A stretch of 64,000 bases of DNA from an uncultured bacterium (GCA_963771165.1 CAVYSN010000004.1:30114-94113); one strand, 5' to 3'. Shown: positions 3 through 60,612, counted from the first letter of the stretch. Notes: generated from the sequence alone by a model not told the origin. Numbers and translations: made by a program.

Positions 3-277
3 AACCCTGCCAAACCGATTCCAATGGCTCTTTTAATGCTTCAAAACAGTAGGTTTTTCTTCACAGAAGAGAGCAAAGGAAGCAAAGGACTTAATGAGCC
101 TGGTTGGAGTATGAAGTTGAACGCCTTGTTCCGGCGCAAGCAAGATTGATTCAAACGGCAAAATACTACCCGAAAGGGCTCAGCGGATTGCTCTACTGGT
201 TTCAGCTCTACCCGATCCACCACATTATGTTTCGTGGACTCGCAAAAGCCATCGCGAACCGCGCAAGCGCAGCGTAA
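3..277 (+). CDS. 3' end of a DUF2867-like (NAD(P)H-binding family C-terminal domain) gene entering from upstream; apparent frame change near 98
   Basis: The frame opening at 98 reads AWLEYEVERLVPAQARLIQTAKYYPKGLSGLLYWFQLYPIHHIMFRGLAKAIANRASAA*. From memory this matches the conserved DUF2867 C-terminus. The upstream part is open only in another frame. The piece is under 60 aa, so it is not in the ORF track. Confidence 0.35.
59..88. repeat. Solo 5' arm of the AGCAAAG-word hairpin family (F3); no partner arm
   Basis: ttcacagaagagagcaaaggaagcaaagg matches the left arms at 9112, 12213 and 57411. No reverse-complement arm follows. Confidence 0.5.
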
Positions 278-338
278 ACCGCCAAGTATGCAAAAAAACC
301 AATCAAAGTTCTTGGCGATTTTGGCGCTCTTGGCGGTT
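277..338. repeat. Word-hairpin element, CGCCAAG family (F8)
   Basis: aaccgccaag (277..286) pairs perfectly with cttggcggtt (329..338). The inner arms are degenerate words. It lies between the convergent stops of the DUF2867-like gene and rpsT. Confidence 0.7.
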
Positions 339-386
339 ACAAAGCAGATGAAGACGCAGAATTTCGATATATACAGGAATGGATAA

Positions 387-650
387 TTATGCGTTTTTGT
401 TGGCGAGTTTGGTGAGGCGGGATTTATGACGCGCTGCGCCATTCTTGCTGAGCACGCCTTTGCGGACCGACTTATCAATGATGGAATAAGCTTCAGGCAA
501 AATCTTTGCGGCATCTTCTCCGCTCGCCGCCATTAACCTGACCTTCTTCAGCTCGGACTTCAACCGCGTTTTGTTCGCTTTATTCCGGGCTTGTAACTTC
601 TTCGACTCGCGCAATCTCTTCTTTGTCGATAATGAACTGGCTCTACCCAT
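387..650 (-). CDS. rpsT: 30S ribosomal protein S20
   Basis: An 87-aa basic ORF (KKRLRESKKLQARNKANKTRLKSELKK...) of typical S20 length and composition. A GGAGG sits about 7 nt upstream of the ATG. Confidence 0.9.
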   Translation of the reverse strand: MGRASSLSTKKRLRESKKLQARNKANKTRLKSELKKVRLMAASGEDAAKILPEAYSIIDKSVRKGVLSKNGAARHKSRLTKLANKNA

Positions 651-675
651 AGTACTTCCTCCAAAAATAACAACT

Positions 676-692
676 GCCGGCGAGCCGCCGGC
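676..692 (-). promoter_or_regulatory. Perfect 7-bp GC hairpin in the rpsT 5' leader
   Basis: GCCGGCG-AGC-CGCCGGC lies 26-42 nt upstream of the rpsT start. Its function is not established. Confidence 0.3.
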
Positions 693-753
693 GCCACATT
701 GGGACTAAGAATTATGCATAAATGAGAACAAGAAAGCAAATAGAACAATGGAG

Positions 754-820
754 ATCACGGAGGACACGAAGACAACAGAGGACAAAATTCTTTCTCCGTG
801 CTCTCCGTGACTCCGTGGTT
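754..820. repeat. Word-hairpin element, CACGGAG family (F1)
   Basis: The 5' arm is tcacggaggacacgaagacaacagagg. The 3' arm ctccgtgctctccgtgactccgtggtt (794..820) is identical to 52107..52133. The element abuts the holA stop. Confidence 0.8.
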
Positions 821-822
821 TA

Positions 823-1866
823 TTACGCCATCAGAGGGACGTCGAAAACAGGAGGAGCCGGCTCTTTCAATGTGCATAGCTGAATCGTCATCAGCTCCAG
901 AATCGTGCGATCCGAGGCTTGACCTGATTTTAAGGCCCGGTCTGCAAACGACAGCACTTCAATCGCCTTGGTCAAATCGGCCATCTGGAATCGGGCCAGC
1001 TGCGTGAGATATTTTTGCAGGAAGTAAACCGGCTTATTGATCTTTTGAGCAATCGTAGCCTGCGGCATTTTCTGGATCACCATCTCCTTCGCGAGAATCA
1101 TCTTTTCGTACTGCTTTGCCAGCAGTGCGATGCAATACACAGGCTGCTCCCCTTGTTCGAGCAGTTCTTGAAGCATGTGTACAGCCTTTCCCGCATCCTG
1201 ATCGAGCAAAGCCTCCGTCCAGTCCCAAATTTTTGCAGTGGGTGTGTAACCGACTCCATCCACCACATCCTGCAAAGCAATTTTCCTTTCGGACGCCCGG
1301 AAAAGCATGAGTTTTTCAAGCTCCGATGAGATCTTTTGCAAGTCTGTGCCCAATCGTTCTGTCAGTGCTTGAATGGCCGGCATTTCAATTTGAAAATTCA
1401 AGCTGCGGAGATGGCCAGTGATCCAGCTTGGAATTTCTTTTTCGCTGAGCGGCTGAAACTCAACCACCATCGTCTTTTTGGAAAGGATTCCCTTCAGCTT
1501 CGAGCTTCCTTCCCATTTCTCCAGATCAAAAATCAACAAAGTACCCGAAGACGGCTGTTCGACATACTGCTCCAGATAGTCTTTAATCCGCCCGATACTT
1601 TTCTCGAGAGCGGAAGCATGTCTGACATACACAACCTTCCAATCGCCGAACATCGGCATTGTGCTGGCTTCATCCAGAAATGACGTATCCTTGATCTCTT
1701 CGCCTAGTAAGGATCTGTAATTAAAAGCGCGCGAATCCTGATCGAGAAAACGGTTTAAAACCGTTTCCAGTGCACGCTCCTTCAGAAAAATTTCTTCGCC
1801 AAGAAAAGTGACGACGGGTGAGATCTTGCGCTCCTGGACCCCTTTGAGAAATTCGGAATAACGCAA
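823..1866 (-). CDS. holA: DNA polymerase III subunit delta
   Basis: A 347-aa ORF of delta-subunit length with the N-terminal pattern PVVTFLGEEIFLKERALE. It follows the leuS-lptE-holA synteny. Confidence 0.8.
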   Translation of the reverse strand: MRYSEFLKGVQERKISPVVTFLGEEIFLKERALETVLNRFLDQDSRAFNYRSLLGEEIKDTSFLDEASTMPMFGDWKVVYVRHASALEKSIGRIKDYLEQYVEQPSSGTLLIFDLEKWEGSSKLKGILSKKTMVVEFQPLSEKEIPSWITGHLRSLNFQIEMPAIQALTERLGTDLQKISSELEKLMLFRASERKIALQDVVDGVGYTPTAKIWDWTEALLDQDAGKAVHMLQELLEQGEQPVYCIALLAKQYEKMILAKEMVIQKMPQATIAQKINKPVYFLQKYLTQLARFQMADLTKAIEVLSFADRALKSGQASDRTILELMTIQLCTLKEPAPPVFDVPLMA

Positions 1867-1869
1867 CTT

Positions 1870-2421
1870 TTAGAATCCTTCGAGAATCGCGGACACAACA
1901 GATTCAGCGAAATCCTTCGCAATTTGATCGATGGCTTCCGATTGCCGGTCAAAGAAGAGAACTTCGTCCTGATCGATTTGATATTGACCCCGGAAAATAA
2001 AACTCGGGTTCTGGAATAAAACCTTCTTCTCCTGCAAATCCGTGAAAGTCACTTTTGCATTGATCACGACGTTGTATTCACTTGCGCGTCCTTCTGTGCT
2101 GAAACTGACCGGATACAGCGAAACGGAAAGGATTGTCCCTTTGAGCACGGCATCCACACCCTGAGCATCCGGTACCACTTTGTACTTGCCGCGTTGCAAG
2201 AGAACTGTTTGAATTCCGGCCGTGATCTTTTGCTCCACCTGATATCCCTGCGTGTTGTTCACAAAAATGGGAAGCCCGATCGTTTTGATATGCGCAGGCA
2301 AGCTGGATCCGGTACCGGCAAGATGGTATCCGCAAGAAAACTGAACAAACAACAGGAAAAGCAAACAGATGACGCGGGCGCGATAAATCGCGCCCCTACA
2401 ATAAGAAAATACAATCTTCAA
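1870..2421 (-). CDS. lptE: LPS-assembly lipoprotein LptE (RlpB-like)
   Basis: 183 aa with a lipoprotein signal ending FSC-GYHLAG. It lies between leuS and holA. The start is TTG with GAGG 7 nt upstream. Codons 8-16 are encoded by a REP copy. Confidence 0.7.
   Translation of the reverse strand: MKIVFSYCRGAIYRARVICLLFLLFVQFSCGYHLAGTGSSLPAHIKTIGLPIFVNNTQGYQVEQKITAGIQTVLLQRGKYKVVPDAQGVDAVLKGTILSVSLYPVSFSTEGRASEYNVVINAKVTFTDLQEKKVLFQNPSFIFRGQYQIDQDEVLFFDRQSEAIDQIAKDFAESVVSAILEGF
2374..2400. repeat. REP-A copy (GTAG head plus GGGCGCGA/TCGCGCCC palindrome) inside the lptE 5' coding region
   Basis: gcgggcgcgataaatcgcgcccctaca has an 8-bp stem and a 4-nt loop. The same element occurs at 19559, 39247 and 57489. 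Confidence 0.8.
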
Positions 2422-2425
2422 ATGA

Positions 2426-4847
2426 TTACCTCACAACAATATTGATCAGTTTATCCGGAACGAACACGATCTTGACAATCTGCTTCCCTTCCAGCTGTCT
2501 TTGAACTTTTTCATCCTTTGTCGCCAGATCCAGGATCTGTTCCTGAGAAAAACCGCGCGGAGCAGGCATGGAAGCGCGCAGTTTTCCATTCACCTGCACC
2601 ACAATCGTCGCCTGTTCCTCCTGGGCCAGGCCGGCATTGAATTCCGGCCATGGATGCGAAGACAGAAGCCGGTCATGGCCCATAGCCGCCCAGAGAGCTT
2701 CGGTCATGTGAGGAGCAAACGGGTTCAACAAATGCAGGATGGTTTGGAGTGATTGATGCACCGTTCTTGCGGAAGGTGGATTCGATTGCTGGATCGCATC
2801 TGTGGTGGCATTCACAAGTTCCATGATCGCACTGATCGCCGTATTTTGATGCATGCGTTCATCTATATCTTGAGTCACTTTGCGCACGGTCTGATGAATC
2901 TTTCGTTCCAGCGCGCGATCCGATTCTGCATTTCCTTCCGATTTGTACTGCATGTTCTGGGAAATCAGCTTCCACACGCGATGCAAGAAACGATGCGAGC
3001 CTTCCACACCCTGATCGCTCCATTCCAGTTCCTTTTCAGGTGGGGCGGCGAAGAGGCTGAACAGCCTTACGGTGTCCGCTCCATAACGCGCGATCAGATC
3101 ATCCGGATCCACCACGTTCCCTTTCGACTTCGACATTTTGGCGCCGTCTTTGATGACCATGCCCTGCGTGAACAAACGTTGGACCGGTTCATCGAAATTA
3201 ACCATTCCCATATCGTAAAAAATTTTCGTGAAAAACCGGCAATAGATCAAATGAAGAATCGCATGCTCAACTCCACCGATGTACATATCAATCGGCATCC
3301 AGTAGCTGACAGCATCTTGATTAAACATCGCGCGATCTTCGTGAGGCGAACAGTACCGGAAAAAGTACCAGCTCGAATCCATGAAGGTATCCATCGTATC
3401 GGTGTCACGGACAGCCGGTCCGCCGCATCTGGGACACGTTACATTCACGAACTCCGGCACACGCGCCAGAGGTGATCCTTTTTCCCCGCTCAGCTCAACA
3501 TGGAGCGGCAGAAGCACAGGCAAATCTTGATCGGGAACAGGAACGATTCCATCCTTTTCACAATGAATCATCGGAATGGGAGTACCCCAGTAACGCTGCC
3601 TCGATATGCCCCAATCCTTGATTTTGAAAGTAACGGCCCCTTCGCCGAATCCCTCGCTCTCAGCAAATGCCGTCATCTGTTTCTGCGCTTCCTCACTGGT
3701 CAGTCCGCTATAAGGAGCCGCTGTTGATGAGTGTGCCGTATTCTTCTTTCGCAGCTTCACCCGCTTCGGTCGCGATCACCGGTCGCTCCGGAATTCCGTA
3801 CTTGCGCGCAAATTCCCCATCGCGAACATCGTGCGCCGGTACAGCCATAATGGCCCCTGTCCCGTAATCCATCAACACGTAATTGGCCACCCAGATCGGA
3901 ATTTTTTCCTGACTGAATGGATTGATTGCGTACACTCCTGTGAAGAAACCCTTCTTTTCAAGGTCCTCTTTGCTGTGGAGCATCTGTTCTTCTTTCAACG
4001 CCCTTGCCTGGACGAATCGCTTCCGAGTCCGGTCCGGCAATCACCGAAAGCAATGGATGCTCCGGAGCTAGTACTACAAATGTAGCACCATAAATCGTAT
4101 CGATTCGTGTTGTAAAGACGCGGATTTTCTCACGCCTGCGTTCCACGCCGAAGTCAACGTAGGCGCCGCGGCTCTTTCCGATCCAGTTCCGCTGCATCGT
4201 TAAAACTTTTTCCGGCCAGGTGGAAAGCCTGTCGAGCCCCTCCAGCAAGCGGTCCGCGTATTCTGTGATTTTGAAATACCACTGCTCCAGCTGCCGGATG
4301 GTTACTTCTGTATCGCAGCGCCAGCATCGTCCGGCAACGACCTGTTCATTTGCAAGAACGGTCTGGCAGCTCGGACACCAGTTCACATTTCCTTTCTTGC
4401 GGTAGGCAAGGCCCTTTTCGAACATGCGAATGAAAAACCACTGGTTCCACTTGTAGTATTCGCGGCTCGCAAGTCGAGACTTCCCTTTTCCAATCATAAG
4501 AAATGCCGAGAGATTTCATCTGATTGCGCATCGCCGGGATGTTTTCGATGGTCCATTTGTAGGGCTGAACTTTGTTTTTGATGGCGGCATTTTCGGCCGG
4601 CATCCCGAGCGCATCCCATCCGATCGGATGGAGCACGTTATGCCCCCGGCGTCTTTTGTAGCGCGCGATCACATCACAGATGGCGTAATTGCGCACGTGA
4701 CCCATGTGAATTTTGCCGGATGGATACGGCAGCATCGCGAGAATGTAAAACTTCGACTTCCCGGACTCTTCGCGAGCTTCAAAACGTGGCTTCCGCTTCC
4801 CAGCGCTTTTGCCACTTCCCTTCGATGTTTCTGAAATCGTAATTCAT
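2426..4847 (-). CDS. leuS: Leucine--tRNA ligase, reading frame broken at least 4 times
   Basis: The HIGH region reads [15 protein letters not shown] and KMSKS reads [14 protein letters not shown]. The N-terminus [22 protein letters not shown] starts at 4847. It appears as five ORF pieces in the track, with breaks near 4786, 4500, 4000 and 3740. Confidence 0.95.
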
Positions 4848-4852
4848 AGGAT

Positions 4853-4920
4853 TTAACGCAATGACGCAAAGTCGCAAAGATGATTATTTTTTCTTAGCGT
4901 CTTTGCGCCTTTGCGTTGAG
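4853..4920. repeat. Word-hairpin element, CGCAAAG family (F2)
   Basis: The 5' arm ACGCAATG ACGCAAAG TCGCAAAG has an 8-nt period. The 3' arm is cttagcgtctttgcgcctttgcgttgag. It fills the DUF374-leuS spacer. Confidence 0.8.
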
Positions 4921-4939
4921 ATAAGAACATTATATTCGT

Positions 4940-5620
4940 TCAGGCGTTTTTCGCCCAGTGTTCGGCAGACTCACGCAATTGATTGAGTGCGTTTTCCAAT
5001 TCCACGCGTTTTGCTTCGAGCGTTTCTTCCGGGAGGTCCTTCTCCAGAAGGATGGGCGGAGCTATATCGACACGCACGCGTGAAAAGGGGAGCGGAATTT
5101 GAAAACGATCCCAGGAAGAGAGGTTTTTTGCGCGTTTTGCTTCAATATGGAAGGGTAGAATCGGATGCCGGGAATAGCTTGCAAGCCAGGTAACACCCTG
5201 TTGCACCTGATGCCGTGGACCGCGGGGTCCATCGACAGTAAAGGCAACGGGCGCTCCATGCTTTAACGTTCGAATCAAACCGATTGTGCCTTTCACGGCC
5301 CCTTTGGATGAGGAACCGCGGCTGCTGCCGTAACCAAAGCGGTGAATCACGTGAGCAATGTACTCACCATCTTTGTTTTCGCTTGTCAGCACAACGATTC
5401 CGCGATTTCGCCAGAAGAAAGTTGCCGCAAGAATGCGTCCATGCCAGAAAGCATAGATGATGGAACGGCTTTTTTCATGCAGTGTTTTGAAATGCTCATA
5501 ACCATGGATTTCCCACCGCCACGTCCGCGCAAGCAGCTGGATCAAGCTCCAACCGATCCAGCTCAGCAAATAGAAATAAAAAGATCGCAAGCGTTTCACC
5601 GCGGAGTACACAGAGAACAC
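4940..5620 (-). CDS. DUF374 / lysophospholipid acyltransferase-like protein
   Basis: 226 aa with YAFWHGRIL ... TVDGPRGPRHQVQQG, typical of DUF374. The first codons overlap a degenerate CACAGAG-word stretch (5600..5667), so the start is uncertain. Confidence 0.7.
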   Translation of the reverse strand: MFSVYSAVKRLRSFYFYLLSWIGWSLIQLLARTWRWEIHGYEHFKTLHEKSRSIIYAFWHGRILAATFFWRNRGIVVLTSENKDGEYIAHVIHRFGYGSSRGSSSKGAVKGTIGLIRTLKHGAPVAFTVDGPRGPRHQVQQGVTWLASYSRHPILPFHIEAKRAKNLSSWDRFQIPLPFSRVRVDIAPPILLEKDLPEETLEAKRVELENALNQLRESAEHWAKNA

Positions 5621-5665
5621 GGAGATAAAGAATCTCTCAGCTCAGCTCCGCTGAACTTGTGACTC

Positions 5666-6728
5666 CTAGTATGATTTTCGAATCACCTGGCAGAGATAAT
5701 CGCCGACCGCTCTTGTTCCCAGCGATCCGCCGAGGTCAGGAGTGGTCTGATTTTCGCGAATCGCGGATCTCACAGCATTTTCAACAAGCTGCGCTTCATC
5801 GTTCATTTGAAGGTGTTGATAAAGTAGCTGCGCTGTTAACACCGCGCCAAAAGGATTCGCAACATCCTTGCCGGCATACTTCGGAGCCGAACCGTGGACC
5901 GGTTCAAACATCGCAGCGCCCTTCGGATTGATGTTGGCGGATGCAGCCATTCCAAGCCCCCCCTGCAACTGCGCCCCCAGGTCCGTAATGATGTCTCCAA
6001 ACATGTTGTTGGTCACAATCACATCAAATGCCCTGGGATCCTTGATCAGTTGCATCGAGAGCGCATCGACGTACATGTGAGTGCATTGCATTTGCGGATA
6101 CTTTGATCCGACTTCCTTGAATACCCGCTGCCATAGATCATGTCCAAATGTCAGAACGTTGCTTTTATCTGTCATGCAAACTTTTTTACGTCCGTGTTTT
6201 ACAGCAAATTCAAATGCATATTCAATGATTCGCTGCACACCTTTTCGCGTGTTCACATCTTCCTGAATTGCAATTTCATCCGGAGTATTCTTTTTGAAAT
6301 TGCCTCCCATTCCAACATACAGACCTTCCGTATTCTCTCGAAAAATCGCGATATCGACATCACCTGGTTTGATTCCTTTGAGTGGACAGAGCCGTTCATC
6401 GAACAGCACAACAGGCCGGTAGTTTACGTAGAGGTCAAGCACGAAACGAGTTCCAAGCAAAATATCGGCGGCGTGACGCATATCGGGTATCCTCGGATCG
6501 CCGAACGCGCCCATGAAGATCGCATCGTAACTCGCCAGATCGTCATAACCGCCGGGCGGCATGCTGATGCCTGTCTTTAAATATTTCTCCGCCCCGTAGT
6601 CGTAGTGCGTCATTTCGACAGTTCTGTCCCGTGACTTCATTACAGGTCTGGATTACTTTGACCACCTCGGCGGTTACGTCTACGCCGATTCCATCGCCTG
6701 GAACCACGGCAATTCTTTTGTGTGCCAT
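5666..6728 (-). CDS. Isopropylmalate/tartrate dehydrogenase family enzyme, one frame break near 6640
   Basis: The N-terminus MAHKRIAVVPGDGIGVDVTAEV (frame of ORF 6543..6848) joins ORF 5666..6640 (NMFGDIITDLGAQLQGGLGMAASAN). Confidence 0.8.
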
Positions 6729-6738
6729 GACCAGAATA

Positions 6739-6921
6739 TTAACGCAATGACGCAAAGACATAAAGCGCCATAACCGCAAGTGTAAGAAGGGGGATCCAGG
6801 AGATTTGGCGATCAGGAGATTGCTCTTTAAATTTCTAACTGGGAACATCCCCTTATCTCAAATATCCCCACATCCCCATTCTTACACGTTCTAACTTTGC
6901 TCCTTCCCGCCTTTGCGTTAC
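6739..6921. repeat. F2 (CGCAAAG) word-hairpin split in its loop by an inserted F4 element
   Basis: The left arm is 6739..6779, and its first 19 nt match copy 4853. The right arm is 6888..6921 (cgcctttgcgttac). The interior 6780..6887 is a complete F4 element. Confidence 0.65.
6780..6887. repeat. GGGGATGTGG-family hairpin element (F4), nested copy
   Basis: gtgtaagaaggggga ... atatccccacatccccattcttacac is homologous across both arms and the loop motif gctctttaa to 19385..19475. Confidence 0.8.
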
Positions 6922-7045
6922 TATTTCCGTTAAGAATGGGAAGAGCTTCTCGTAAAAAGAAAACCGCACCGCAGGAGATTAAAGCTGAAGAAAGGCAACT
7001 CTGCAGTAGCTCCGATCTATCACAGGTTTAGATACGACAGATTGG

Positions 7046-9097
7046 TTGGTGTTGTGTTTGATTACGATCGCGTCACTGGCCGTTTATGCCAAAACGCTTT
7101 GTCCCACCATATTTACTACAGGAGCCGGCGAAAACGTGACCGCTGTTGTCACATTAGGGATTCCACACCCGCCTGGTTTCCCATTGTTTGTTCTCCTTGG
7201 CAAGATTTTTACTTACGTGATCCCCTTCGGAACAGCTGCTTTCCGAGTGAACTTCTTTTCAGCGGTCTGCGGCGCCGCGGCTGCTGCCATGTTTTACGTT
7301 TTATGCAGAACTCTAGTCGGTCCGGATCGTCGGTTTGCCGCTGCGGCAGCGGCTTTGTTATTTGCATTTTCACAAACGTTCTGGTCGCAGGCAGTCATTG
7401 CCGAAGTTTACACACTGAATGCGTTGATCCTGATTTGCGTCTTTTACATGCTGCGGCGATGGGAACGTGGTGGACCATTGTGGCCTGCGGCTTTATTTGC
7501 AGGCCTGGGCTTAACGGTGCACCCAATGCAAGCATTGTTCTTCCCGGGATGGATGTATTTTATTCTGCGATCCCATAAGCGATCTCAGATTGATTCCGAA
7601 GAGGTAAAAAAGAGTATTGCGGTTTTTGCCGGCGCTTTGTGTTTGCATTTGTATCCGCTCATTCGATCCAGGGCCAATCCACCGCTGGACTGGGGCAATC
7701 CTGAAAACGGGAAAAACCTGATCGCCTACCTGACGGCATCTCAATACCGGGATCGCATGTTTACGCTTCCTTTTTCGGTCGTGCTTGAGAACGCCGGTAA
7801 GGGATTTCAATTACTGTTTGAGCAATTTACGCCCTTTCTTTTTATCCTGCCTCTTGCTGGCGCCGTGTTGCTTTTCAAAAAACAAAGACGTTTGTTCATG
7901 GTAACGTTCCTCTCCGTTGTGCTGACTTTTTTATACGCCATCAATTACAACATTCCGTGGGAAATCGATGTGTACTACATTCCAATTGTGTTTGTGGCGG
8001 CGTTCTGGACCTTTTCGTTACTGTCGTTGGCTCCCGCAAAATATTCTTATGTGTTGCCTTTGCTGGCTGTTCTTCCTTTGATTTTGAACTTTCAACACAA
8101 TGACCGGTCAAAAAATAGAATTGCTCTTGATTATGGAATCGATCTTTTGAACACGGCTCCGGAGAACTCCACACTTCTTTTGCCGCAAACAGACGCTGCG
8201 TTTACGGTGCTCTATTTGACCGGCGCTGAAAAGAAACGAAATGATTTGAGCTTGTGGGTGTACAACGAAGATGGTGTGAGCACTTTGCGGGACGGAGTGA
8301 ATCCGAATGTTCCTCCGATTCCAATGGAGCGATTTCTGGCGGATCGAAAGAATATCTTTTTAACCCAGCGAGTCACGGATGAAACCGTACCGGGATACAA
8401 CCAGCTTCCATATGGCGTGCTCTATCTTCTGGCGCGAAAAGATAGTCAGCCGGGACACGCACCGATTGACTTCACAAAATATCGATTGGAGGAGAACATC
8501 TCTTCGCCACCTTCTTTCTTTCTGGATGACAGGAACCGGGCGGTGCTTGCCTCGTATTATCTGTCGCGCGGGGATCAGGCTCTTTCAGCCGGCAAGAGAG
8601 GGCTTGCGATGGAAGGATATTTAAACGCCGAAAAGTTGGGTGAGGATCTGGCGGAGATTCGGAGCCAGCTTGCACTGCGCTTCGCGGATCTCGGGAACAC
8701 CGCGGCGGCCATTGCTCAGCTTCGTGCGAGCATTCAGCTGAATGAAAGCGCGGGGGATCAGAATCGTCTGGGGCGACTTCTTGCTGAGTCCGGCCGAACG
8801 GATGAAGCCATGACCGCTTTTGTGCGCGCTATTGAACTGGATCCAAAGATGGCCATCGCTCATTCGAATCTCGGAGCCACTCTGGGCATGAAGGGTGATA
8901 TGAAACGGGCCATTCAAGCGTTGGAAACAGCAGTGAGACTCGATCCAAACGATCCGAAATCGCATAACAACCTTGCGATTGCATATATGAAAACGGGACG
9001 CCGTGAGGCGGCGGTTGCGCACTGGAAAACATCCTTGAATCTCGATCCGAGTCAGAAGCAAGTCAGAACGCAGCTGGAAGAATTGAATGTACAATGA
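7046..9097 (+). CDS. DUF2723 (PMT-like membrane glycosyltransferase) with C-terminal TPR repeats
   Basis: 683 aa with multiple TM segments, the motif GIPHPPGFPLFVLLGK, and TPR repeats in the last ~170 aa. An N-terminal extension from ATG 6937 may exist in another frame. Confidence 0.75.
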   Translation: MVLCLITIASLAVYAKTLCPTIFTTGAGENVTAVVTLGIPHPPGFPLFVLLGKIFTYVIPFGTAAFRVNFFSAVCGAAAAAMFYVLCRTLVGPDRRFAAAAAALLFAFSQTFWSQAVIAEVYTLNALILICVFYMLRRWERGGPLWPAALFAGLGLTVHPMQALFFPGWMYFILRSHKRSQIDSEEVKKSIAVFAGALCLHLYPLIRSRANPPLDWGNPENGKNLIAYLTASQYRDRMFTLPFSVVLENAGKGFQLLFEQFTPFLFILPLAGAVLLFKKQRRLFMVTFLSVVLTFLYAINYNIPWEIDVYYIPIVFVAAFWTFSLLSLAPAKYSYVLPLLAVLPLILNFQHNDRSKNRIALDYGIDLLNTAPENSTLLLPQTDAAFTVLYLTGAEKKRNDLSLWVYNEDGVSTLRDGVNPNVPPIPMERFLADRKNIFLTQRVTDETVPGYNQLPYGVLYLLARKDSQPGHAPIDFTKYRLEENISSPPSFFLDDRNRAVLASYYLSRGDQALSAGKRGLAMEGYLNAEKLGEDLAEIRSQLALRFADLGNTAAAIAQLRASIQLNESAGDQNRLGRLLAESGRTDEAMTAFVRAIELDPKMAIAHSNLGATLGMKGDMKRAIQALETAVRLDPNDPKSHNNLAIAYMKTGRREAAVAHWKTSLNLDPSQKQVRTQLEELNVQ

Positions 9098-9111
9098 ACA
9101 TGGAAGTATTT

Positions 9112-9178
9112 TTAACAGAAGGAAGCAAAGAAAGCACAGTTTTTTATTTCTTTGCTCCCTTCGCTATCTTCTGTTGAA
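9112..9178. repeat. Word-hairpin element, AGCAAAG family (F3)
   Basis: ttaacagaaggaagcaaagaaagcacag / ctttgctcccttcgctatcttctgttgaa. The 5' arm contains no T. The element ends 3 nt before the SDR ATG. Confidence 0.85.
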
Positions 9179-9181
9179 AAA

Positions 9182-9874
9182 ATGAAAAAGGTTTTAGTCA
9201 CGGGCGGTACAAAAGGAATTGGAGAGGCAATCGCTTCACATTTACGCGCCTGCGGTTACGGCGTTATCACCTGTGCTCGTGAGGGGGCTGACATCCGTTG
9301 CGACGTCACCGACAGAACGCAGGTTGAGGCAATGCATACTGAAGTCGGTCCGGTTGAAATTTTGATCAATAATGCTGGGGGAGTTCACACTTCAGCGTTT
9401 TTGAAGACCACTGAAGAAGATTGGGACTGGCACTTTAACATAAACCTCAAAAGCATTTTTTACTGTACACAGACTTTTCTTCCTCCCATGCTGGAAAACA
9501 AATGGGGCCGAATCATCAATGTCGCGTCTACTGCCGGAAAAATCGGGGGCCGCTACATTTCCACATATGTCGCCGCAAAACATGCTGTGATCGGACTTAC
9601 ACGATCCCTCGCGCTGGAATATGCGGATAAAGGGATTACGGTGAATGCAGTTTGTCCCTCTTTCGTCGACACACCGATGCTGCGTGACGAAGCGAAACGT
9701 GTTTCGGAAAGGTCAGGAAAAAGTTTGGAATTTGTGATGGAGCGATTCCTCATGATGAACCCCCAAAAACGGTTTGTAACACCGCAGGAAGTGGCAACAG
9801 CCGTTCAATTTTTGATAGAAAACGGTGCCATCAACGGCCAGGCGCTTTCGATTTGTGGAGGCGAAACCAACTGA
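9182..9874 (+). CDS. Short-chain dehydrogenase/reductase (FabG / 3-hydroxyacyl-CoA dehydrogenase-like)
   Basis: MKKVLVTGGTKGIGEAIA is a Rossmann motif, and YVAAKHAV matches the catalytic YxxxK. The start is trimmed to ATG 9182 because the upstream part of the ORF is repeat sequence. Confidence 0.85.
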   Translation: MKKVLVTGGTKGIGEAIASHLRACGYGVITCAREGADIRCDVTDRTQVEAMHTEVGPVEILINNAGGVHTSAFLKTTEEDWDWHFNINLKSIFYCTQTFLPPMLENKWGRIINVASTAGKIGGRYISTYVAAKHAVIGLTRSLALEYADKGITVNAVCPSFVDTPMLRDEAKRVSERSGKSLEFVMERFLMMNPQKRFVTPQEVATAVQFLIENGAINGQALSICGGETN

Positions 9875-10317
9875 TGCGTATCTTGAATCCAAAAACCCTT
9901 GCCACTCCTCGCGGGTACAATCACGGAATCCAGGCAATCGGAAATCTCGTTTTCGTTTCGGGCCAGATCGGATGGGACAAAGAGGGTAAGGTTGCAGAAG
10001 GCCTTGTGAATCAATTCGAGCTGGCTCTGAAAAACATTCTTGTTGTTGTAGAAGATGCAGGCGGAAAAGCAGAAAATATTGCACGTCTCACAATTTTCAT
10101 CAAAGACAAGCAACAATATCTGGACCGGCGTAAGGAGATCGGCGAGCGCTACCGGTCCCTGATGGGCAAGCACTACCCTGCCATGAGCTTGCTGATCATT
10201 CAAGACTTGCTGGAAGAGAAAGCGCTCGTTGAAATTGAAGCCACAGCAGTGCTTGGCAAAACCTCCGGGCGCGGTCGCAGAGTTCGGCGGGCGAGCCGGC
10301 AGCGGTACAACCCATGA
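9874..10317 (+). CDS. RidA/YjgF family protein
   Basis: PRGYNHGIQAIGNLVFVSGQIGWD ... VEIEATAVL. The ATG overlaps the SDR stop (TGATG). Confidence 0.8.
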   Translation: MRILNPKTLATPRGYNHGIQAIGNLVFVSGQIGWDKEGKVAEGLVNQFELALKNILVVVEDAGGKAENIARLTIFIKDKQQYLDRRKEIGERYRSLMGKHYPAMSLLIIQDLLEEKALVEIEATAVLGKTSGRGRRVRRASRQRYNP

Positions 10318-11107
10318 ATGTACCGGAAAGTTTTGAGCTGCATATCGCGGACGGAATTGCGCAAATCGTTTTAAGCCGTCCTGAAGCATACAATGCCTTG
10401 ACTTTTGAAGTCTACAGAGAGCTTACGCAATGCTTCATCGAGCTTGAGGCGGAGGATCGTGTGCGAGTGGTGATTTTGACCGGACGCGGAAAAGCCTTTT
10501 GCAGTGGCGGCGATGTAAAGGACATCATCGGCGCGCTTTTGCATGCGGAGGAAGCCAGACTGCTGCAATTCACTCGAATGACATGCGAACTTGTTTGGAG
10601 CATGCGAACCTGTTCCAAACCAATCATTGCATGCCTGAACGGTGTAACAGCAGGTGCAGGGGCGATTCTTGCGATGGCATCCGATTTTCGTATCGCGGCA
10701 GATACTGCACGAATCGCGTTCCTGTTTGTCCGGGTCGGCCTTTCCGGCGCTGACATGGGCGCCTGTTACGTGCTTCCGAAAATTGTCGGTCTTGACAAAG
10801 GCAACAGAATTGTTGATGACAGGCGACTTCATTTCGGCAGAAGAAGCCCACCGAATCGGCCTTTACAATCGAGTCGTTCGGGCAGAAGAGTTATCCGATG
10901 TCGCGGCAGAACTGGCCACCAAACTCGCGACAGGACCGGCAAACGGGCTCGCCATCACCAAACAGCAGATCAATGCCGAAACGTCTGCCGCGTCTGAAAG
11001 AAGTTCTGGACGCAGAAGCAACCGTGCAAGCACAATGCATGCGACATCCCGACTTTGAAGAAGGTTATAACGCATTCATCGAAAAACGGAATCCGAAATT
11101 TCAATGA
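10314..11107 (+). CDS. Enoyl-CoA hydratase/isomerase family protein, 2 frame breaks
   Basis: VVILTGRGKAFCSGGDVKD ... ACLNGVTAGAGAILAMASDFRIA. The C-terminus continues in ORFs 10654..11058 and 10898..11107. It has an ATGA overlap with RidA. Confidence 0.85.
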
Positions 11108-12210
11108 TTCAACCTTTGCAGCCGGAATTTCAGCAATTGGAAAGCAAGGTCCAGGCTCTTTTTCAGGACAAAAAATGGGCTGTGGAAGAACGAAACGTTT
11201 TCATTTTGCAGAAGTCTCATTCAAGCATTCGGAAAAAACGGATTGCTTCAATTCGTCACGCCTGCGCCATCCGTTCGCAATCTTTGTTTTTTACGTTATG
11301 CGATCGCGCAAAGATCGGCCCTTGGAGATTTGCTTTTTGCCATGCAGGGTCTTGGAAGTTATCCGATCACTCTTGCCGGCAGTGATGAACAAAAGGAGAA
11401 AGTATTTAAGCGGGGTCGCGAATGGGAGACCTGGTTGCGGCATTTGCGATGACAGAGCCGCAAGCAGGTTCTGATGCAGGCTCCATGACAATGAGGGCGG
11501 AAGCACAAGATGGCGGTTACCTGTCTTGAACGGCACTAAAACTTTGATCAGCAATGCAGGACTCGCTGACTTTTATACACTGTTTGCCAGAACTTCGGAA
11601 GGTTCGCGTGGAGTAACCGCTTTTATCCTGGAAGCTTCTTCGCAAGGAGTGCAAACCAAACAGCAGGAGCTTGTTGCGGCCCATCCGATCGGCCAATTGG
11701 AATTGCAGGGATTGCTTCATTCCTGCGAACCTGCGTCTGGGCAACGAGGGGGAAGGGTTGAAGATCGCGTACAGCACGCTCGATGTGTTTCGTCCGAGTG
11801 TCGCAGCGGCAGCAGTCGGAATGGCGGAACGCGCATTTCAAGAAGCTGTCAACTTTGCGAAACAGCGGAAACAGTTTGGTAAAACGATTGCCGAGTTTCA
11901 AGGGATTCAATTCAAGATCGCTGAAATGGCCCAGTTGCTGCAAGCGTCGAAATTACTTGTCTGGGACGCTGCATCAAAAAAGGATACGGGAGCCGCGCGA
12001 ATCACGTTGGAAGCAGCGCTGGCGAAATCCTATGCTACAGAAGCGGCTCAGCAGATCATTGACCAGGCATTGCAAATTCATGGTGGCGTCGGATTGCTTC
12101 GAGGTTCCATCACGGAACGGCTTTACCGCGACATTCGCGCATTGCGCATCTATGAAGGAACCACCGAAGTGCTGAAGACCTTGATCGCGCAGCAATATTT
12201 GAACGCTTGA
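11104..12210 (+). CDS. Acyl-CoA dehydrogenase, at least 4 frame breaks
   Basis: The pieces read ...AFGKNGLLQF..., FAMQGLGSYPITLAGSDEQKEK, AAFAMTEPQAGSDAGS, LNGTKTLISNAG, and the C-terminus QIHGGVGLLRGSITERLYRDIRALRIYEGTTEV. Confidence 0.85.
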
Positions 12211-12212
12211 TT

Positions 12213-12281: not shown

Positions 12282-12283
12282 AA

Positions 12284-15438: not shown

Positions 15439-15540
15439 TCCCCATACCGTGGCCGAGCCTGTTGAAAAATTCGAAGAAGGAGTATTTTCTAGAAGGAGCG
15501 CGGGCCCACGTCACAGAATAGTTAAGACTATAATGAACCT

Positions 15541-48468: not shown

Positions 48469-48491
48469 ATTTTTGAATCCCCTATGATAGA

Positions 48492-48578: not shown

Positions 48579-48580
48579 CT

Positions 48581-51166: not shown

Positions 51167-51179
51167 GACACATTGAATA

Positions 51180-51213
51180 CCTTTAACTTTTAATCTTTAT
51201 CTTTTATCTTTAC
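51180..51213. repeat. Solo 3' arm of the F5 family abutting the nfo start
   Basis: cctttaacttttaatctttatcttttatctttac has no 5' arm upstream, where the nrnA coding sequence lies. Confidence 0.6.
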
Positions 51214-51216: not shown

Positions 51217-52106
51217 ATGCTTTTAGGCGCTCACATGTCCATCGAAGGAGGGCTCCATCGGGCCCTGGAGAGAGGACACTCGATCGGATGCACGACAATT
51301 CAGATTTTTACAAGGAACAATGCAAGGTGGGCGGCTCGCGATCTTTACGAGGAAGAAATCGAGCAGTTTCGGACAATTCGGGAACATGTATTCGATTCAT
51401 TCTGTTTTTGTGCATTGCAGTTATCTCATCAATCTTGCTGCGGAAAATTTCTACGAGAAATCGATTGAAGGATTAAAAGTCGAAGTGTTGCGCGCAGAGA
51501 GTCTGGGGCTGCCGTTCGTGGTTTTGCATCCAGGAGCTCACATGGGTCAAGGTGAAGAAGAAGGACTCATCCGCGTGGCCGCTGCGATCGATCGTGTGAT
51601 GGATGCAACGTCCAGGGCACGTTGCAAAATCGTGATTGAGAATACGGCGGGCCAGGGATCCTGTATAGGCTGCAAAATCGAACATCTTGAGTTTCTGTGG
51701 AATCATGTTGCCGATCGTAGCCGATTGGGGTTCTGTCTGGACACGTGCCATTTATTCGCAGCAGGTTACGACATTCGCACGGAGAAAGCTTACGAAAAAA
51801 CATTTGACTGAGCTGCTCAACCACGTTCCATTGGAAGCAATTCTTGCTTTTCATTTGAACGATTCGAAAAAACCGTTGGGCTCTCGTGTCGACCGGCATG
51901 AACACATTGGAAAAGGAGAAATTGGTCGAATCGCGTTCCGCTGCCTGTTGAATGACTCGCGATTCTTTCATGTTCCTAAAGTCCTTGAGACTCCAAAAGG
52001 AAAAGATCTGGCGGAAGATATCGTGAACTTGAAATGCTTGCGACGCATGATCAGGACTACCACGGAGTCACGGAATTCACGAGAGATAAAAACAATTGGT
52101 AGCTAG
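51217..52106 (+). CDS. nfo: Endonuclease IV, 2 frame breaks (~51395, ~51810)
   Basis: LLGAHMSIEGG, VHCSYLINLA, VLHPGAH, IENTAGQGS, CLDTCHLFAAGYD, FHLNDSKKPLGSRVDRHEHIG. The last ~15 codons read into the F1 repeat. Confidence 0.9.
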
Positions 52107-52133
52107 CTCCGTGCTCTCCGTGACTCCGTGGTT
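52059..52133. repeat. Word-hairpin element, CACGGAG family (F1)
   Basis: CCACGGAG TCACGGAA TTCACGAGAG / ctccgtgctctccgtgactccgtggtt. It lies between the convergent nfo and receiver genes. Confidence 0.85.
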
Positions 52134-52499: not shown

Positions 52500-52507
52500 C
52501 TTACTGA

Positions 52508-52578
52508 AGATTGTAGATTGTAGACGTCAAAATGCAAAATGCTCCTTTGCAATCTAGAATATGCCATATGCCATATGC
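52508..52578. repeat. Three adjacent tandem 7-mer duplications
   Basis: AGATTGT x2 (52508..52521), AAAATGC x2 (52529..52542), ATATGCC x2.9 (52559..52578). Confidence 0.75.
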
Positions 52579-52610
52579 AATAGAAAGAGCGGTATAATAC
52601 TTCGTCTTCC

Positions 52611-57410: not shown

Positions 57411-57480
57411 TTTACAGAAGATAGCAAAGGGAACAAAGAATAAAGATTTACCCTTCGCTTACTTTGCTTGCTTCTATAAA
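57411..57480. repeat. Word-hairpin element, AGCAAAG family (F3)
   Basis: tttacagaagatagcaaagggaacaaag / cccttcgcttactttgcttgcttctataaa. It is preceded by a T7 run. Confidence 0.85.
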
Positions 57481-57486
57481 AGCTCA

Positions 57487-57514
57487 CGCGGGCGCGATGA
57501 ATCGCGCCCCTACA
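57487..57514. repeat. REP-A copy
   Basis: cgcGGGCGCGAtgaaTCGCGCCCctaca. Confidence 0.8.
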
Positions 57515-57517
57515 TCC

Positions 57518-58466: not shown

Positions 58467-58543
58467 ATAAAGATAAAAGCTAAAGGTTAAAAGTGTTTGT
58501 GAGCGGATTTTTGACCTTTATCTTTTAACCTTTATCTTTTAAC
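58467..58543. repeat. Word-hairpin element, TAAAAG/TAAAGG family (F5)
   Basis: AATAAAG ATAAAAG CTAAAGG TTAAAAG / gacctttatcttttaacctttatcttttaac. Confidence 0.85.
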
Positions 58544-58559
58544 TCTATAATAGATCGTC

Positions 58560-58961
58560 ATGACCGAAAGACATTTCACACCTGAAGAAGCAGATCATTT
58601 GATTCCAAAATTGGAGCAGATCGTTTCCAATATGCTGGATCAGCGAAAGTCAGCATTGGCTCTTGGGGAAGAACTGCAGGCAATGCAGGATCGAATTCAA
58701 TCGGGTGAAAACGTCATCGCCTCGGATCTGATGAATAAAAGAACGGAGCTCGATTTCATCGTTGAAATCATTCAGGAAGGGCTGAATCAAATCGAAGATC
58801 TGGGTGGACATCCTAAAGATCTGGATCTTGGATTGGTGGATTTTCCAGCGGAGCTTGATGGCGAAGAAATATTATTGTGCTGGCGATATGGGGAGAAGTC
58901 GATCCGCTTTTATCATGGTCCCGAGGACGGTTACTCCGGCCGAAAGCCGTTAAGACGGTAA
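58560..58961 (+). CDS. DUF2203 family protein
   Basis: 133 aa; FTPEEADHLIPKLEQIV ... LVDFPAELDGEEILLCWRYGE. A TATAAT box at 58546..58551 ends 8 nt upstream of the ATG. Confidence 0.7.
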   Translation: MTERHFTPEEADHLIPKLEQIVSNMLDQRKSALALGEELQAMQDRIQSGENVIASDLMNKRTELDFIVEIIQEGLNQIEDLGGHPKDLDLGLVDFPAELDGEEILLCWRYGEKSIRFYHGPEDGYSGRKPLRR

Positions 58962-58965
58962 TTCC

Positions 58966-59928
58966 GTGGAATTGCTGGACAAGTACGGTTACAGTCTAGT
59001 TTTTGTAGTTGCACTACTGGAACAATTAGGATTACCGCTCCCAGTTGCGCCGGTGCTTCTTTTAGGTGGCGCTGTTGCCGCAAGTGGTAAATTATCGTTT
59101 ACAACCCTTGTCGTTTTTGCCGTTCTTGCCGCATTGATCGGAGACATTGTCTGGTACCATCTCGGCAGGCAGAAGGGGCGCAGTGTCCTCAAAATACTGT
59201 GCCATCTATCGTTGAGTCCTGAGACATGCGTTAAGAAGACAGAAGAAAGTTTTTTAAAGCACGGGATGAATTCGTTGCTGTTTGCGAAATTTGTTCCGGG
59301 GTTGAATACAATTGCTCCCCCAATGGCCGGTTTGGTTGGATCCCGTTTCGTTTCCTTTCTGTGGCGCGATCTGATCGGCGCCCTGGTATACGTTCTCGCC
59401 TTTCTGATCCCCGGTTATTTTCTTGAAAAAAGTATTTTTCACATTACAACTCTCTTCGAACAGCTGGGACGAACCTTTTTCTGGCTGCTTGTAGTATCAC
59501 TGATTGGTTACTTATTCATCAAATACATCAAGCTGAAACTGTTGCAGAAGCTTCTTTACAAGGAACGAATCACTCCGGAAGAACTTCATGAACGAATCCA
59601 CGCAGGAGAAGCTGTCATCATTGTGGATATTCGCTCAAACATCCCGACCGATTTGGATGCCGGATTTATTCCCGGGGCGATCCGCATTCCACCGGACGAG
59701 ATCGATGAGCATATGCATCGTCTGGATAAGGAACGATGGATTGTCATGTATTGTACGTGACCCAACGAATTCACAAGTGCCCGTGTGGCAAAGCTACTGT
59801 TCGATCGAGGTTATCAGAAAGTAAGACCTTTGCTGGGTGGATACGACGCGTGGGTGAACGCAGGATTCCCTGTTGAACCTTATCAACCTTCGTTGAAATC
59901 ACATGAAGAAACCAAAAACGCCTCCTGA
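58966..59928 (+). CDS. DedA (VTT/SNARE-associated) membrane domain fused to a rhodanese domain; in-frame TGA in the rhodanese active-site loop
   Basis: The DedA motifs are LEQLGLPLPV, GDIVWYHLGR and LFAKFVPGLNTIAPP. The rhodanese reads IIVDIRS...WIVMYCT-TGA-PNEFTSARVAKLLFDRGYQKVRPLLGGYDAWVNAGFPVE and stays in the same frame on both sides of 59758..59760. Confidence 0.8.
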
Positions 59929-60550
59929 ACAGCGGATTGGTGAAATTCTCAAACTGCTAAAAAAGGAATATCCCGATGCGACCTGTTCTTTGAATTACAC
60001 AACTCCATTTGAGCTGTTGATTGCAACAATTCTGTCCGCGCAATGCACAGATGTAAGAGTAAACCTGGTTACGAAAGAGCTCTTTCGCAAGTACGCCGGA
60101 CCAAAAGACTATCTCGCTGTTCCGGAAGAAGAATTACAAAACGATATACGCACAACCGGTTTTTTTCGTAATAAAACAAAAAGTATTCGCGGAGCCAGTG
60201 CAAAGATGATTGAGGAATTTGGAGGAGAAGTCCCCGCGACTATGGAAAAACTGTTAACCTTGCCTGGAGTGGCCCGAAAGACGGCAAATGTGGTTCTTGG
60301 AAATGCTTTTCGCATCACATCCGGCGTTGTTGTGGACACTCACGTCAGTCGGGTAAGCCAAAGGTTAGGGCTAACGAAAGAGACTCATCCTGAAAAAATC
60401 GAACAGGCCTTGATGAAACTCATCCCGAAGAAAGATTGGATTTCTTTCAGCCACCGGCTGATTCTGCACGGCCGCTATGTTTGCAAAGCGCCGAAACCGG
60501 ATTGTCCCAATTGTGTGCTGAATCACCTCTGCCCTTCCTCAACGGTATGA
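59903..60550 (+). CDS. nth: Endonuclease III
   Basis: LIATILSAQCTDVRVN, LPGVARKTANVVLG (HhH), and the Fe-S cluster motif CKAPKPDCPNCVLNHLC. Confidence 0.95.
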   Translation: MKKPKTPPEQRIGEILKLLKKEYPDATCSLNYTTPFELLIATILSAQCTDVRVNLVTKELFRKYAGPKDYLAVPEEELQNDIRTTGFFRNKTKSIRGASAKMIEEFGGEVPATMEKLLTLPGVARKTANVVLGNAFRITSGVVVDTHVSRVSQRLGLTKETHPEKIEQALMKLIPKKDWISFSHRLILHGRYVCKAPKPDCPNCVLNHLCPSSTV

Positions 60551-60551
60551 T

Positions 60552-60612
60552 CTAACACAGAGACACGAGAGAGAGAATAAAAATAATTCCAAAACTCCGT
60601 GTCTATGCGTTA
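60552..60612. repeat. Word-hairpin element, CACAGAG family (F1)
   Basis: ctaacacagagacacgagagagag / ctccgtgtctatgcgttaa. It lies between the convergent nth and methyltransferase stops, and its right terminus contains the minus-strand TAA. Confidence 0.75.

Follow-up and report, generated by a model that had tools for sequence, protein, structure and literature searches.

Tandem-word hairpins of an uncultured bacterium as possible members of a widespread, partly gene-carrying superfamily of selfish elements

The spacers of a 64-kb stretch of DNA from an uncultured bacterium (GCA_963771165.1 CAVYSN010000004.1:30114-94113; hereafter the window, which always means the whole stretch; G+C content 48%) contain hairpins whose arms are made of short, tandem, purine-rich words, and the question raised by this locus is what such hairpins are: selfish elements, host signals acting in RNA, sites for DNA-binding proteins or products of local slippage. 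The window is Acidobacteriota-like, its methionyl-tRNA synthetase (MetRS) having 84% identity with a protein called 'MAG: Acidobacteriota bacterium'. Here, we report that the hairpins have the same arms as longer, gene-carrying elements of other genomes and propose, with about as much confidence as doubt, that they are members without an open reading frame (ORF) of a phylum-spanning superfamily of selfish hairpins, which resembles the intervening sequences (IVSs) of rRNA genes on the one hand and repetitive extragenic palindromic sequences (REPs) and miniature inverted-repeat transposable elements (MITEs) on the other.

An initial annotation of the window had listed 16 such hairpins, and all of them were found where it had placed them or within a few bases. 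Since a sliding scan for minimum free energy mainly returned stems of GC-rich coding sequence and passed over the AT-richer hairpins, we adopted a dynamic-programming scan for single stems. Over the whole window, 34 sliding windows scored at least 30 with a maximum of 47; five dinucleotide shuffles scanned in the same way gave 0-3 windows at this level and a maximum of 32. The top scorers were the listed elements, two GTAG-headed REPs and a few weaker items. Arrays of at least two [CA]RCNRAG words, counted on both strands, numbered 16 vs 1.1 ± 1.0 in shuffles, and an exact 6-mer 2+2 word criterion was too strict, returning 2 elements only. The stems comprise 18-32 Watson-Crick pairs per element and the loops are AT-rich and mostly 10-39 nt long (range 4-39). 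Distant copies are also related in sequence: those first listed as 754 and 52059 have an exact 27-mer in common, those at 4853 and 6739 an exact 19-mer, and the 3' arms of those at 9112 and 12213 are nearly identical. The hairpins are real, far beyond chance, and additional members were found at 5595-5655 and 24120-24197 and as solo arms at 59-90 and 51179-51208. It should be noted that they do not occupy most intergenic spacers, as had been suggested; only 17 of the 47 crude spacers of at least 40 nt, or about one-third, hold any repeat element, several of these 47 being artefacts of frameshifted genes. No match of the window to Rfam was obtained at gathering threshold, and the sole match in E-value mode was that of 30561-30644 to a microRNA hairpin model (31 bits vs a threshold of 100 bits). 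Rfam found no rRNA in the window, the copies lying in spacers and in metG.

The grammar that had been described for the hairpins was borne out, with purine words in the 5' arm, their complement in the 3' arm and a foot of the type TTAAC/TTCAC...GTTAA/GTGAA. The 5' arm is poor in T and the 3' arm poor in A, and this applies to both strands: the 5' arm of either strand keeps to purine words without T. As the arms avoid T (5') and A (3'), they contain no stop codon in any of the six frames. At variable positions of the arms, a match between the two arms is commoner than in permuted pairs, showing that the arms are correlated; complementarity of the spacers between words is limited to 23-67% of elements, with purines in both 5' arms. 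The view that the word families share no sequence did not stand. CACGGAG, CACAGAG, CGCAAAG and CGCCAAG/CACCAAG all fit C-R-C-N-R-A-G, and AGCAAAG nearly does, so four of the six families initially named are variants of one word. Arrays of mixed words were found in other genomes as well (loci L036, L074, L147 and L202). These data support a single superfamily with a common grammar. Two further distinctions drawn at the outset also hold: the copies are scattered singly over 60 kb without the regular repeat-spacer periodicity of CRISPR, and their TTAAC/TTCAC feet separate them from the GTAG-headed REPs, which occur on their own at 19523-19585 and 44947-45009.

The occurrence of the words beyond the window was examined by an exact scan of GTDB genomes (one genome per species) with the 22-base pattern CTCCGTGNNCTCCGTGNCTCCGTGG, which contains three CTCCGTG words at the spacing of the window. 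At least 120 stretches were recovered, vs about 0.07 expected by chance according to our own arithmetic; the genome of the window itself is not among the loci matched. The sources among the matches listed include Acidobacteriota (with the isolate Geothrix limicola), Planctomycetota, Verrucomicrobiota, Gemmatimonadota, Chloroflexota, Armatimonadota, Bacteroidota, Alpha- and Gammaproteobacteria, Geobacter, Candidatus Auribacterota and Candidatus Moduliflexus, so that CTCCGTG arms are spread over at least ten phyla. Most matches form plus/minus pairs 50-150 nt apart and represent the same hairpin, with unrelated loops and a foot of TTCACC...GGTGAA or TTAACC...GGTTAA. The ACGCAAAG, CGCCAAG and AGCAAAG families were found again in Planctomycetota, Candidatus Moduliflexus and Opitutales, the TAAAAG family was not seen elsewhere, and the grammar is common to many other word families (for example, CACGGAT, GACAGGAT, GGAATG, GTTGAAAGG and CACCGATGAA). 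The CTCCGTGNNCTCCGTGNCTCCGTGG pattern is present in 54 IMG/VR stretches too; no cargo genes were found in the viral loci, and the AGCAAAG pattern returned only coding-sequence look-alikes from viral contigs. In other genomes, the arms are 4 to more than 600 nt apart; over all loci their distance is bimodal, with modes at 0-150 and 300-600 nt. Two side observations concern the make-up of individual loci. A separate and very widespread repeat lies within or beside word hairpins at L114 (1378-1675), L009 (~730-860), L013 and L105; it was read in translation at L114 (...RFAQDDN / RFARDDK...) and as the DNA strings GTCATCCCGAGG.GAAGCGAAGGATC and CTTCGCTCAGGGCAGG at the other loci. The element at L263 (~9409-9530) is chimeric, having ACGCAAAG words in the 5' arm, AATTCGTG words in the 3' arm and an array of AACAATTT words between them.

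Where the arrays lie about 500 nt apart, the enclosed gene, of ~370 nt, encodes a GxxExxY protein (TIGR04256 / PF13366 PDDEXK_3, E ~1e-43), with conserved acidic and lysine residues that are consistent with the D...E-x-K motif of a PD-(D/E)XK nuclease-like protein. The association was recovered from the side of the protein as well. A set of 80 metagenome loci was fetched by GxxExxY protein alone (588 relatives confirmed), and of the 76 loci with both flanks, approximately 70 were bracketed, within ~100 nt or less, by inverted word arrays with a TTCAC foot, the words being CACGGAG, CACAGAG, CACGAAG, CGCAGAG and CGCGGAG. CGCAGAG or CACCGATGAA arrays enclose further GxxExxY genes, and ACGCAAAG words precede one such gene. 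The proteins of these cassettes are 57-69% identical to the query while the arm words are unchanged, which implies a sequence-specific constraint on the words and their recognition as sequence, beyond pairing alone. At another locus (L153), the gene bracketed, here by GGAACAAG arrays, belongs to the TIGR02436 four-helix-bundle family ('23S rRNA intervening sequence protein'). Thus, the short and the long forms have the same arms. The GxxExxY family is large (21,710 clusters at 50% identity, E<=1e-3), and PF13366 is listed with 'multiple transfers' and an unknown function. Array-encoded peptides (TEGTEDTE, NAKGAKE and TKGTKDE) were found at the ends of many database proteins. The arms are translated in several settings: in the linker of metG, at the C-terminus of an AP_endonuc_2 ORF that enters the hairpin at 52059 and at the N-termini of some GxxExxY proteins, one subfamily of which has its ATG at the foot and reads the arm as M-I-H-H-G-D-T-E... 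The possibility that the GxxExxY gene uses the last GGAG word as its Shine-Dalgarno sequence was rejected, because it is not general, the spacing to the start codon varying from -11 to 87 nt, and because the arm is translated from the foot ATG in that subfamily.

Some further features of these genes were seen in passing. The top-scoring GxxExxY representatives (P0241-P0258) are proteins of 260-295 aa with two tandem domains, the second having GPGLL(R/P)SAY in place of GxxExxY, and may constitute a fused, possibly heterodimer-like subfamily. At L119, a REP-associated tyrosine transposase (RAYT)-like gene (4924-5631; NF047646, 78.6 bits vs a cut-off of 80 bits) lies between inverted copies of a different, self-palindromic array, AGACTTCCGAAGTCTTGAAGACTTCGGAAGTCT; the interval that follows (5598-6554), which has the same AGACTTCCGAAGTCTTGAAGACTTCGGAAGTCT arrays at its ends, contains a 307-aa ORF without a family.

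On the basis of these results, a full member of the proposed superfamily would consist of a TTCAC/TTAAC foot, 2-5 tandem words of 7-10 nt, a variable centre and the same array inverted, with C-R-C-N-R-A-G plus one or two purines as the commonest word. The centre would be a GxxExxY gene of ~370 nt or, less often, a four-helix-bundle '23S rRNA IVS' gene in long members, and an AT-rich loop of 10-40 nt in short members of the window type. Such elements may spread as DNA, the word arrays acting as terminal inverted repeats that would be read by an element-encoded protein; the candidate reader is GxxExxY, which could work in trans on ORF-less copies, as RAYT does on REPs. Copies would survive mainly just downstream of genes, and their transcribed stem of 20-30 bp might serve as a substrate of RNase III or as a hairpin at 3' ends, by analogy with the Coxiella 23S IVS, which has the same stem of repeated heptamers. 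It is possible, although we would lean against it, that the window hairpins are non-autonomous copies of an unrecognised, cross-phylum mobile class, in which GxxExxY is a PD-(D/E)XK mobilising nuclease that reads a modular code of inverted tandem words of 7-10 nt, the words differing by protein lineage, and of which the ORF-bearing rRNA IVSs and the sites described in Geobacter are special cases.

That the hairpins are repeated and probably mobile, in line with the functional or mobile class of the initial annotation, agrees with the paralogous copies, with the turnover of families at the same spot, with an insertion in metG and with nesting. Two syntenic relatives, L121 and L123 (MetRS 79% and 77% identical, respectively), have the gene order kynureninase-TDO-creatininase-...-metG-...-pfk-glgP in common with the window and contain very few hairpins, which are of other word families. 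The hairpin that follows glgP is of CACAGAG type in the window and made of AATTGTACGAT words in L123, and L121 has yet another palindrome there. The M16 peptidase genes of the window (30672-33505) lie between glgP and cbiM and are flanked by hairpins of two families (30563-33590), whereas glgP and cbiM are adjacent in L123, with a single hairpin between them (14173-14314); the hairpins therefore mark a difference in gene order. The CACCAAG/CGCCAAG-family copy at 21140-21232 (first listed as 21141) is located inside metG and is read through in the metG frame, +2 (tblastn), in the linker that joins the catalytic/anticodon part to the C-terminal tRNA-binding domain. This linker is 52 aa long in the window vs 28-45 aa, with no word-encoded stretch, in 31 homologues extracted by pattern match; homologues that the linker pattern did not match have ordinary metG linkers wherever these are readable, and the insertion is absent in every homologue with a readable linker. 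Nesting was observed in the window and elsewhere: the 108-nt GGGGAT element lies within the hairpin at 6739-6921, and at L065 a CACGGAG hairpin sits inside a ACGCAAAG hairpin. With regard to MITE criteria, terminal inverted repeats are present; a parent-like long form exists, but its gene encodes a PD-(D/E)XK-like protein.

It should be noted that conserved genes of the window contain frameshifts, namely metG (~20973), glgP (28019-30570, 3 ORFs), leuS (2426-4756, ~4 ORFs) and the AP_endonuc_2 gene (51320-52106, split into 2 ORFs). The one in metG is a single extra T (ATATGCAGG vs ATAGCAGG expected from homologues). Indel errors of the assembly are the most likely cause of these frameshifts, more so than pseudogenes, and if that is so, small bulges in the hairpins may be errors too.

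Several observations weigh against mobile elements served by GxxExxY. We found no transposition intermediate, no target-site duplication and no clean pair of filled and empty sites: the flanks of the copies show no consistent duplication, their TTAA-like ends extend the stem and are common to copies, no empty site could be aligned, and the ends of the metG insertion are undefined because the linker is too variable. Unlike in classical MITEs, the loops of the window hairpins are unrelated between copies. Neither a GxxExxY nor a TIGR02436 gene was detected in the 64-kb window by tblastn, and no link to a cargo gene was found for the TAAAAG family or, apart from L059, for the AGCAAAG family. The AlphaFold2 model of GxxExxY is mediocre, with a mean local confidence (pLDDT) of 71, and has no Foldseek neighbour in the PDB at E<0.8, and a sequence search of the PDB with GxxExxY gave no relative; a likeness of the model to RNA-splicing endonucleases and restriction enzymes was discarded, the matches being weak and not significant. 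GxxExxY is thus cast as the mobilising enzyme by pure inference. Finally, both the position of the hairpins relative to genes and the presence of a hairpin after glgP in the window and its two relatives would also fit a function selected by the host at the 3' ends of genes.

The latter points lead to the main rival explanation, which we hold to be unlikely though by no means negligible: the hairpins would be host-selected RNA 3'-end elements, serving U-tract-independent termination, RNase III cleavage or protection against 3' exonucleases, with the repeat families as mere raw material. Of the 13 word hairpins of the window, ten start 0-20 nt past a stop codon and occupy tandem or convergent spacers; for two of them the foot itself contains the stop. 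After glgP, a hairpin is kept in all three sequences in spite of unrelated sequences. The 85 hairpins located in other genomes are distributed over 43 tandem, 19 convergent and 11 divergent spacers, with 12 apparently intragenic by crude gene calls, and their median distance to a gene 3' end is 22 nt. In Geobacter, the 13 complete class 2 pairs on one page of the published supplement all lie 3' of at least one gene. In addition, the window shows no excess of canonical terminators (27 terminator-like sites in 1-20000 vs 24.3 expected), and something else may therefore end transcripts; a consensus terminator scan missed the hairpins, except for an inner piece of one of them at 805-818. However, the hairpins are not canonical intrinsic terminators either, as was recognised initially: no T-tract follows them, and in the AGCAAAG family T-runs precede and A-runs follow. 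The remaining word hairpins lie in divergent promoter regions (2 of 13; 6739 and 48482) or inside a gene (1 of 13; metG). Selection for the stem in the transcript would be expected to leave more G.U than A.C oppositions on the sense strand, yet 16 G.U vs 24 A.C were counted in nine window copies with an unambiguous transcribed strand, and 69 G.U vs 75 A.C in 64 gene-carrying cassettes oriented by their ORF. Selection on a stem at the RNA level is therefore unsupported. An early hand count for the copy at 9112 (21 Watson-Crick, 1 G.T and 3 A.C oppositions) was close, our recount giving 24 Watson-Crick, 2 G.T, 3 A.C and 2 other; the accompanying suggestion that the minus-strand transcript folds better does not generalise, the pooled G.U and A.C counts being without strand preference. 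The limited complementarity of the spacer positions given above (23-67% of elements) also speaks against a selected stem, and such a stem would not require word identity across phyla.

The conservation of the words as sequence, beyond pairing, would fit another explanation, which we nevertheless regard as improbable, namely arrays of sites for a host DNA-binding protein of the 'global regulator / IHF-HU' kind, in which each word is a protein contact, arrays are paired for looping or bending and the hairpin is incidental. Spacers that are purine in both arms rather than complementary, and a variable distance between arrays, also speak for it. Tandem operator words of 7-8 bp are bound by ribbon-helix-helix proteins such as MetJ and omega, which provide a precedent. 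On the other hand, identical words are spread over more than ten phyla, while several unrelated word families coexist within one genome; the arrays bracket one particular, mobile-looking gene family; copies decay, with degenerate arms at 754, 52059 and 60552; and the sites lie mostly 3' of genes and not at promoters. A local origin without mobility, by slipped-strand duplication of words on both arms of small palindromes and with convergent family likeness, is very hard to credit: the word copy number is variable (2-5 per arm) and the Coxiella IVS heptamers are gained and lost between strains (PMC4990558), but exact identities of 19-27 nt connect distant copies, identical 22-base patterns recur across phyla far above the chance expectation given above (at least 120 stretches vs ~0.07), and foot sequences are conserved. 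Another idea, the healing of breaks by telomerase-like addition of words at both 3' ends, was rejected because the outermost foot is conserved.

The individual elements of the window are as follows. The CACGGAG/CACAGAG type is represented by the hairpin at 739-824 (first listed as 754), which lies directly after holA (minus strand), has a degenerate 5' arm and contains in its 3' arm the exact 27-mer CTCCGTGCTCTCCGTGACTCCGTGGTT, common to the 52059 copy; by an extra degenerate hairpin of CACGGAG/CGCGGAG type at 5595-5655, which starts with TTCACCGCGGAG and reads TTCACCGCGGAGTACACAGAGAACACGGAG ... CTCCGCTGAA; by the hairpin at 30563-30642 (first listed as 30567), the best of the window with 28 Watson-Crick pairs, whose TTAAC foot contains the glgP stop codon; by that at 52059-52132, between convergent genes, whose 5' arm is traversed by the plus-strand AP_endonuc_2 ORF, with the stop in the loop; and by a degenerate CACAGAG hairpin at 60550-60615 (first listed as 60552), also between convergent genes, with a stop TAA in its CTAAC foot. 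A composite at 24120-24197 joins a CGCAGAG/CACAGAG arm to a five-copy GAAATCT array. The CGCCAAG-family hairpin at 257-338 (first listed as 277) has 24 Watson-Crick pairs and a loop of 24 nt. Hairpins of the ACGCAAAG family were found at 4853-4919 (foot TTAAC...GTTGA), ~20 nt past the stop of a DUF374 gene (minus strand); at 6739-6921, in a divergent promoter region, with a 3' arm ..CGCCTTTGCGTTAC at ~6895-6921; and at 33510-33590, 5 nt past the second M16 peptidase gene and 8 nt before cbiM. The loop of the 6739-6921 hairpin holds, as a nested insertion, the 108-nt GGGGAT element at 6780-6887, which is MITE-like, with inverted ends starting GTGTAAGAAGGGGGAT, GGAGAT-type 9-nt words and 35 Watson-Crick pairs in its best stem; a second copy of this GTGTAAGAA(A/G)GGGGAT element lies at 19385-19475, upstream of metG. 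To the AGCAAAG family belong the hairpin at 9109-9180 (first listed as 9112), which fills the spacer between a TPR/glycosyltransferase gene and a short-chain dehydrogenase gene, its paralogue at 12204-12290 (first listed as 12213), with a 3' arm near-identical by eye, the hairpin at 57411-57480, followed by a REP half-site, and a solo 5' arm at 59-90 (TTCACAGAAGAGAGCAAAGGAAGCAAAGGAC) with no clear partner arm. The TAAAAG/TAAAGG family comprises the hairpin at 48482-48587 (first listed as 48492), in the divergent promoter region between MatE and FHA-PrsW genes, that at 58467-58548, 1 nt past the proline dehydrogenase gene and 12 nt before the next gene, and a solo pyrimidine arm at 51179-51208 (ACCTTTAACTTTTAATCTTTATCTTTTATC).

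Other repeats and reading frames of the window are of a different kind. The GTAG/CTAC-footed REP palindromes (AGTAGGGGCGCAATTCATTGCGC...GCGCGATGAATCGCGCCCCTACT) occur at 19523-19585 and 44947-45009, with the half-site beside the 57411 hairpin at ~57481-57515; the window showed no RAYT gene. Upstream of metG, the GGGGAT element and the REP are separated by a near-perfect 12-bp hairpin (AGCAGGGCATTGGCCCACAATGCCCTGCT; 19493-19521), which makes a stack of three different palindromes within 200 nt. The divergent spacer at 52505-52582 contains a tandem GATTGTA array and three copies of ATATGCC, neither with an inverted partner. A minus-strand ORF at 41-514 (157 aa) has no Pfam match and includes the solo arm at 59-90 and the whole hairpin at 257-338; it is probably spurious, held open by the stop-free arms.

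If the link between the hairpins and the gene-carrying forms holds, a common explanation would be available for the abundant GxxExxY and 'four helix bundle' small proteins, for the origin of ORF-bearing rRNA IVSs and for the tandem-word palindromes in spacers of Acidobacteriota, Planctomycetota, Verrucomicrobiota, Geobacter and others. Stop-free arms give rise to spurious ORF extensions and low-complexity protein tails in databases (HHGDTEDTE, NAKGAKE and SVSSVPPW), can lie within real genes, as in metG, and belong to elements that mark rearrangement junctions. As candidate RNase III or 3'-end sites, the hairpins would shape operon expression in phyla with poorly defined intrinsic terminators.

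Comparison with known systems reveals partial likenesses to several of them. The Rickettsia palindromic elements, Correia and Nezha are MITEs that insert in frame in genes; like these, the word hairpins are short palindromes that can be translated as protein (metG copy) and undergo nested insertion, whereas no target-site duplication or same-ended transposase parent was found for them and their loops are unrelated. With REP/bacterial interspersed mosaic elements (BIMEs) and the REP doublets (REPINs) served by RAYT they have in common high-copy intergenic palindromes in families, a single-gene 'master' flanked by repeats, a possible location at gene 3' ends and use as targets by the IS110 family (ISGme8 at Geobacter class 1 sites). 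Unlike REPs, the word hairpins have no GTAG/CGTC head and their arms are tandem words, and the bracketed gene is the PD-(D/E)XK-like GxxExxY rather than an HUH Y1 transposase.

The initial statement that no described element has such a multi-family word architecture did not hold, as precedents exist in Geobacter metallireducens (PMC2700814) and in the Coxiella 23S IVS (PMC4990558). Searching the literature by sequence strings returned nothing, the literature searched contains no link between GxxExxY genes and word arrays, and a description of the superfamily or of the GxxExxY link was found in neither Rfam nor that literature. In Coxiella, the 23S IVS has a 28-bp terminal stem, within which RNase III cleaves, and tandem GACAGAT heptamers, in a number that varies between strains, before an S23p (four-helix-bundle) ORF (Warrier et al., 2016; PMC4990558); IVSs of the Coxiella/Leptospira type are regarded as selfish and are excised by RNase III (PMC4990558). 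PF05635 proteins resemble Avd, the accessory protein of diversity-generating retroelements (PMC10053308). Similarly, the window copies have a long terminal inverted-repeat stem (18-32 Watson-Crick pairs, compared with the 20 bp or more that defines IVSs), and the TIGR02436 gene within GGAACAAG arrays at L153 corresponds to the PF05635/TIGR02436 ORF of IVSs. Unlike IVSs, the window copies lie outside rRNA (not in helix 25 or 45), lack an ORF, are 60-110 nt long and use other words.

The closest description of the grammar itself concerns G. metallireducens, in which four classes of paired tandem hepta- or octanucleotide sites were reported (Aklujkar et al., 2009; PMC2700814). These classes consist of 3-5 tandem words (GTTGCTYN, TCTCCGTS[Y], MTYCTGA and CCYTC) on opposite strands at variable distance, they were proposed to be 'global regulator' sites of IHF/HU type, and insertions of the IS110-family element ISGme8 keep a fixed distance to class 1 sites (PMC2700814). 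The class 2 word TCTCCGTS[Y] is the CTCCGTG word of the copies first listed as 754, 30567 and 52059. Three tandem copies of it were found at 793-818 and 52106-52131 (both TCTCCGTGCTCTCCGTGACTCCGTGG) and, as a variant, at 30611-30633, and in all three CACGGAG-type copies (739, 30563 and 52059) an inverted partner array lies 13-20 nt away. The window hairpins and the Geobacter sites thus agree in being opposite-strand pairs of tandem words, in several classes per genome and, as far as the published supplement page indicates, mostly 3' of genes. The Geobacter sites were taken as IHF/HU-type and unique to that species, they are given in supplementary figures only, and that account made no link to hairpins, GxxExxY genes or other phyla. 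Therefore, the grammar of the window hairpins has been noted before in one species, where it was interpreted differently, and the IVS literature holds one heptamer instance of it.

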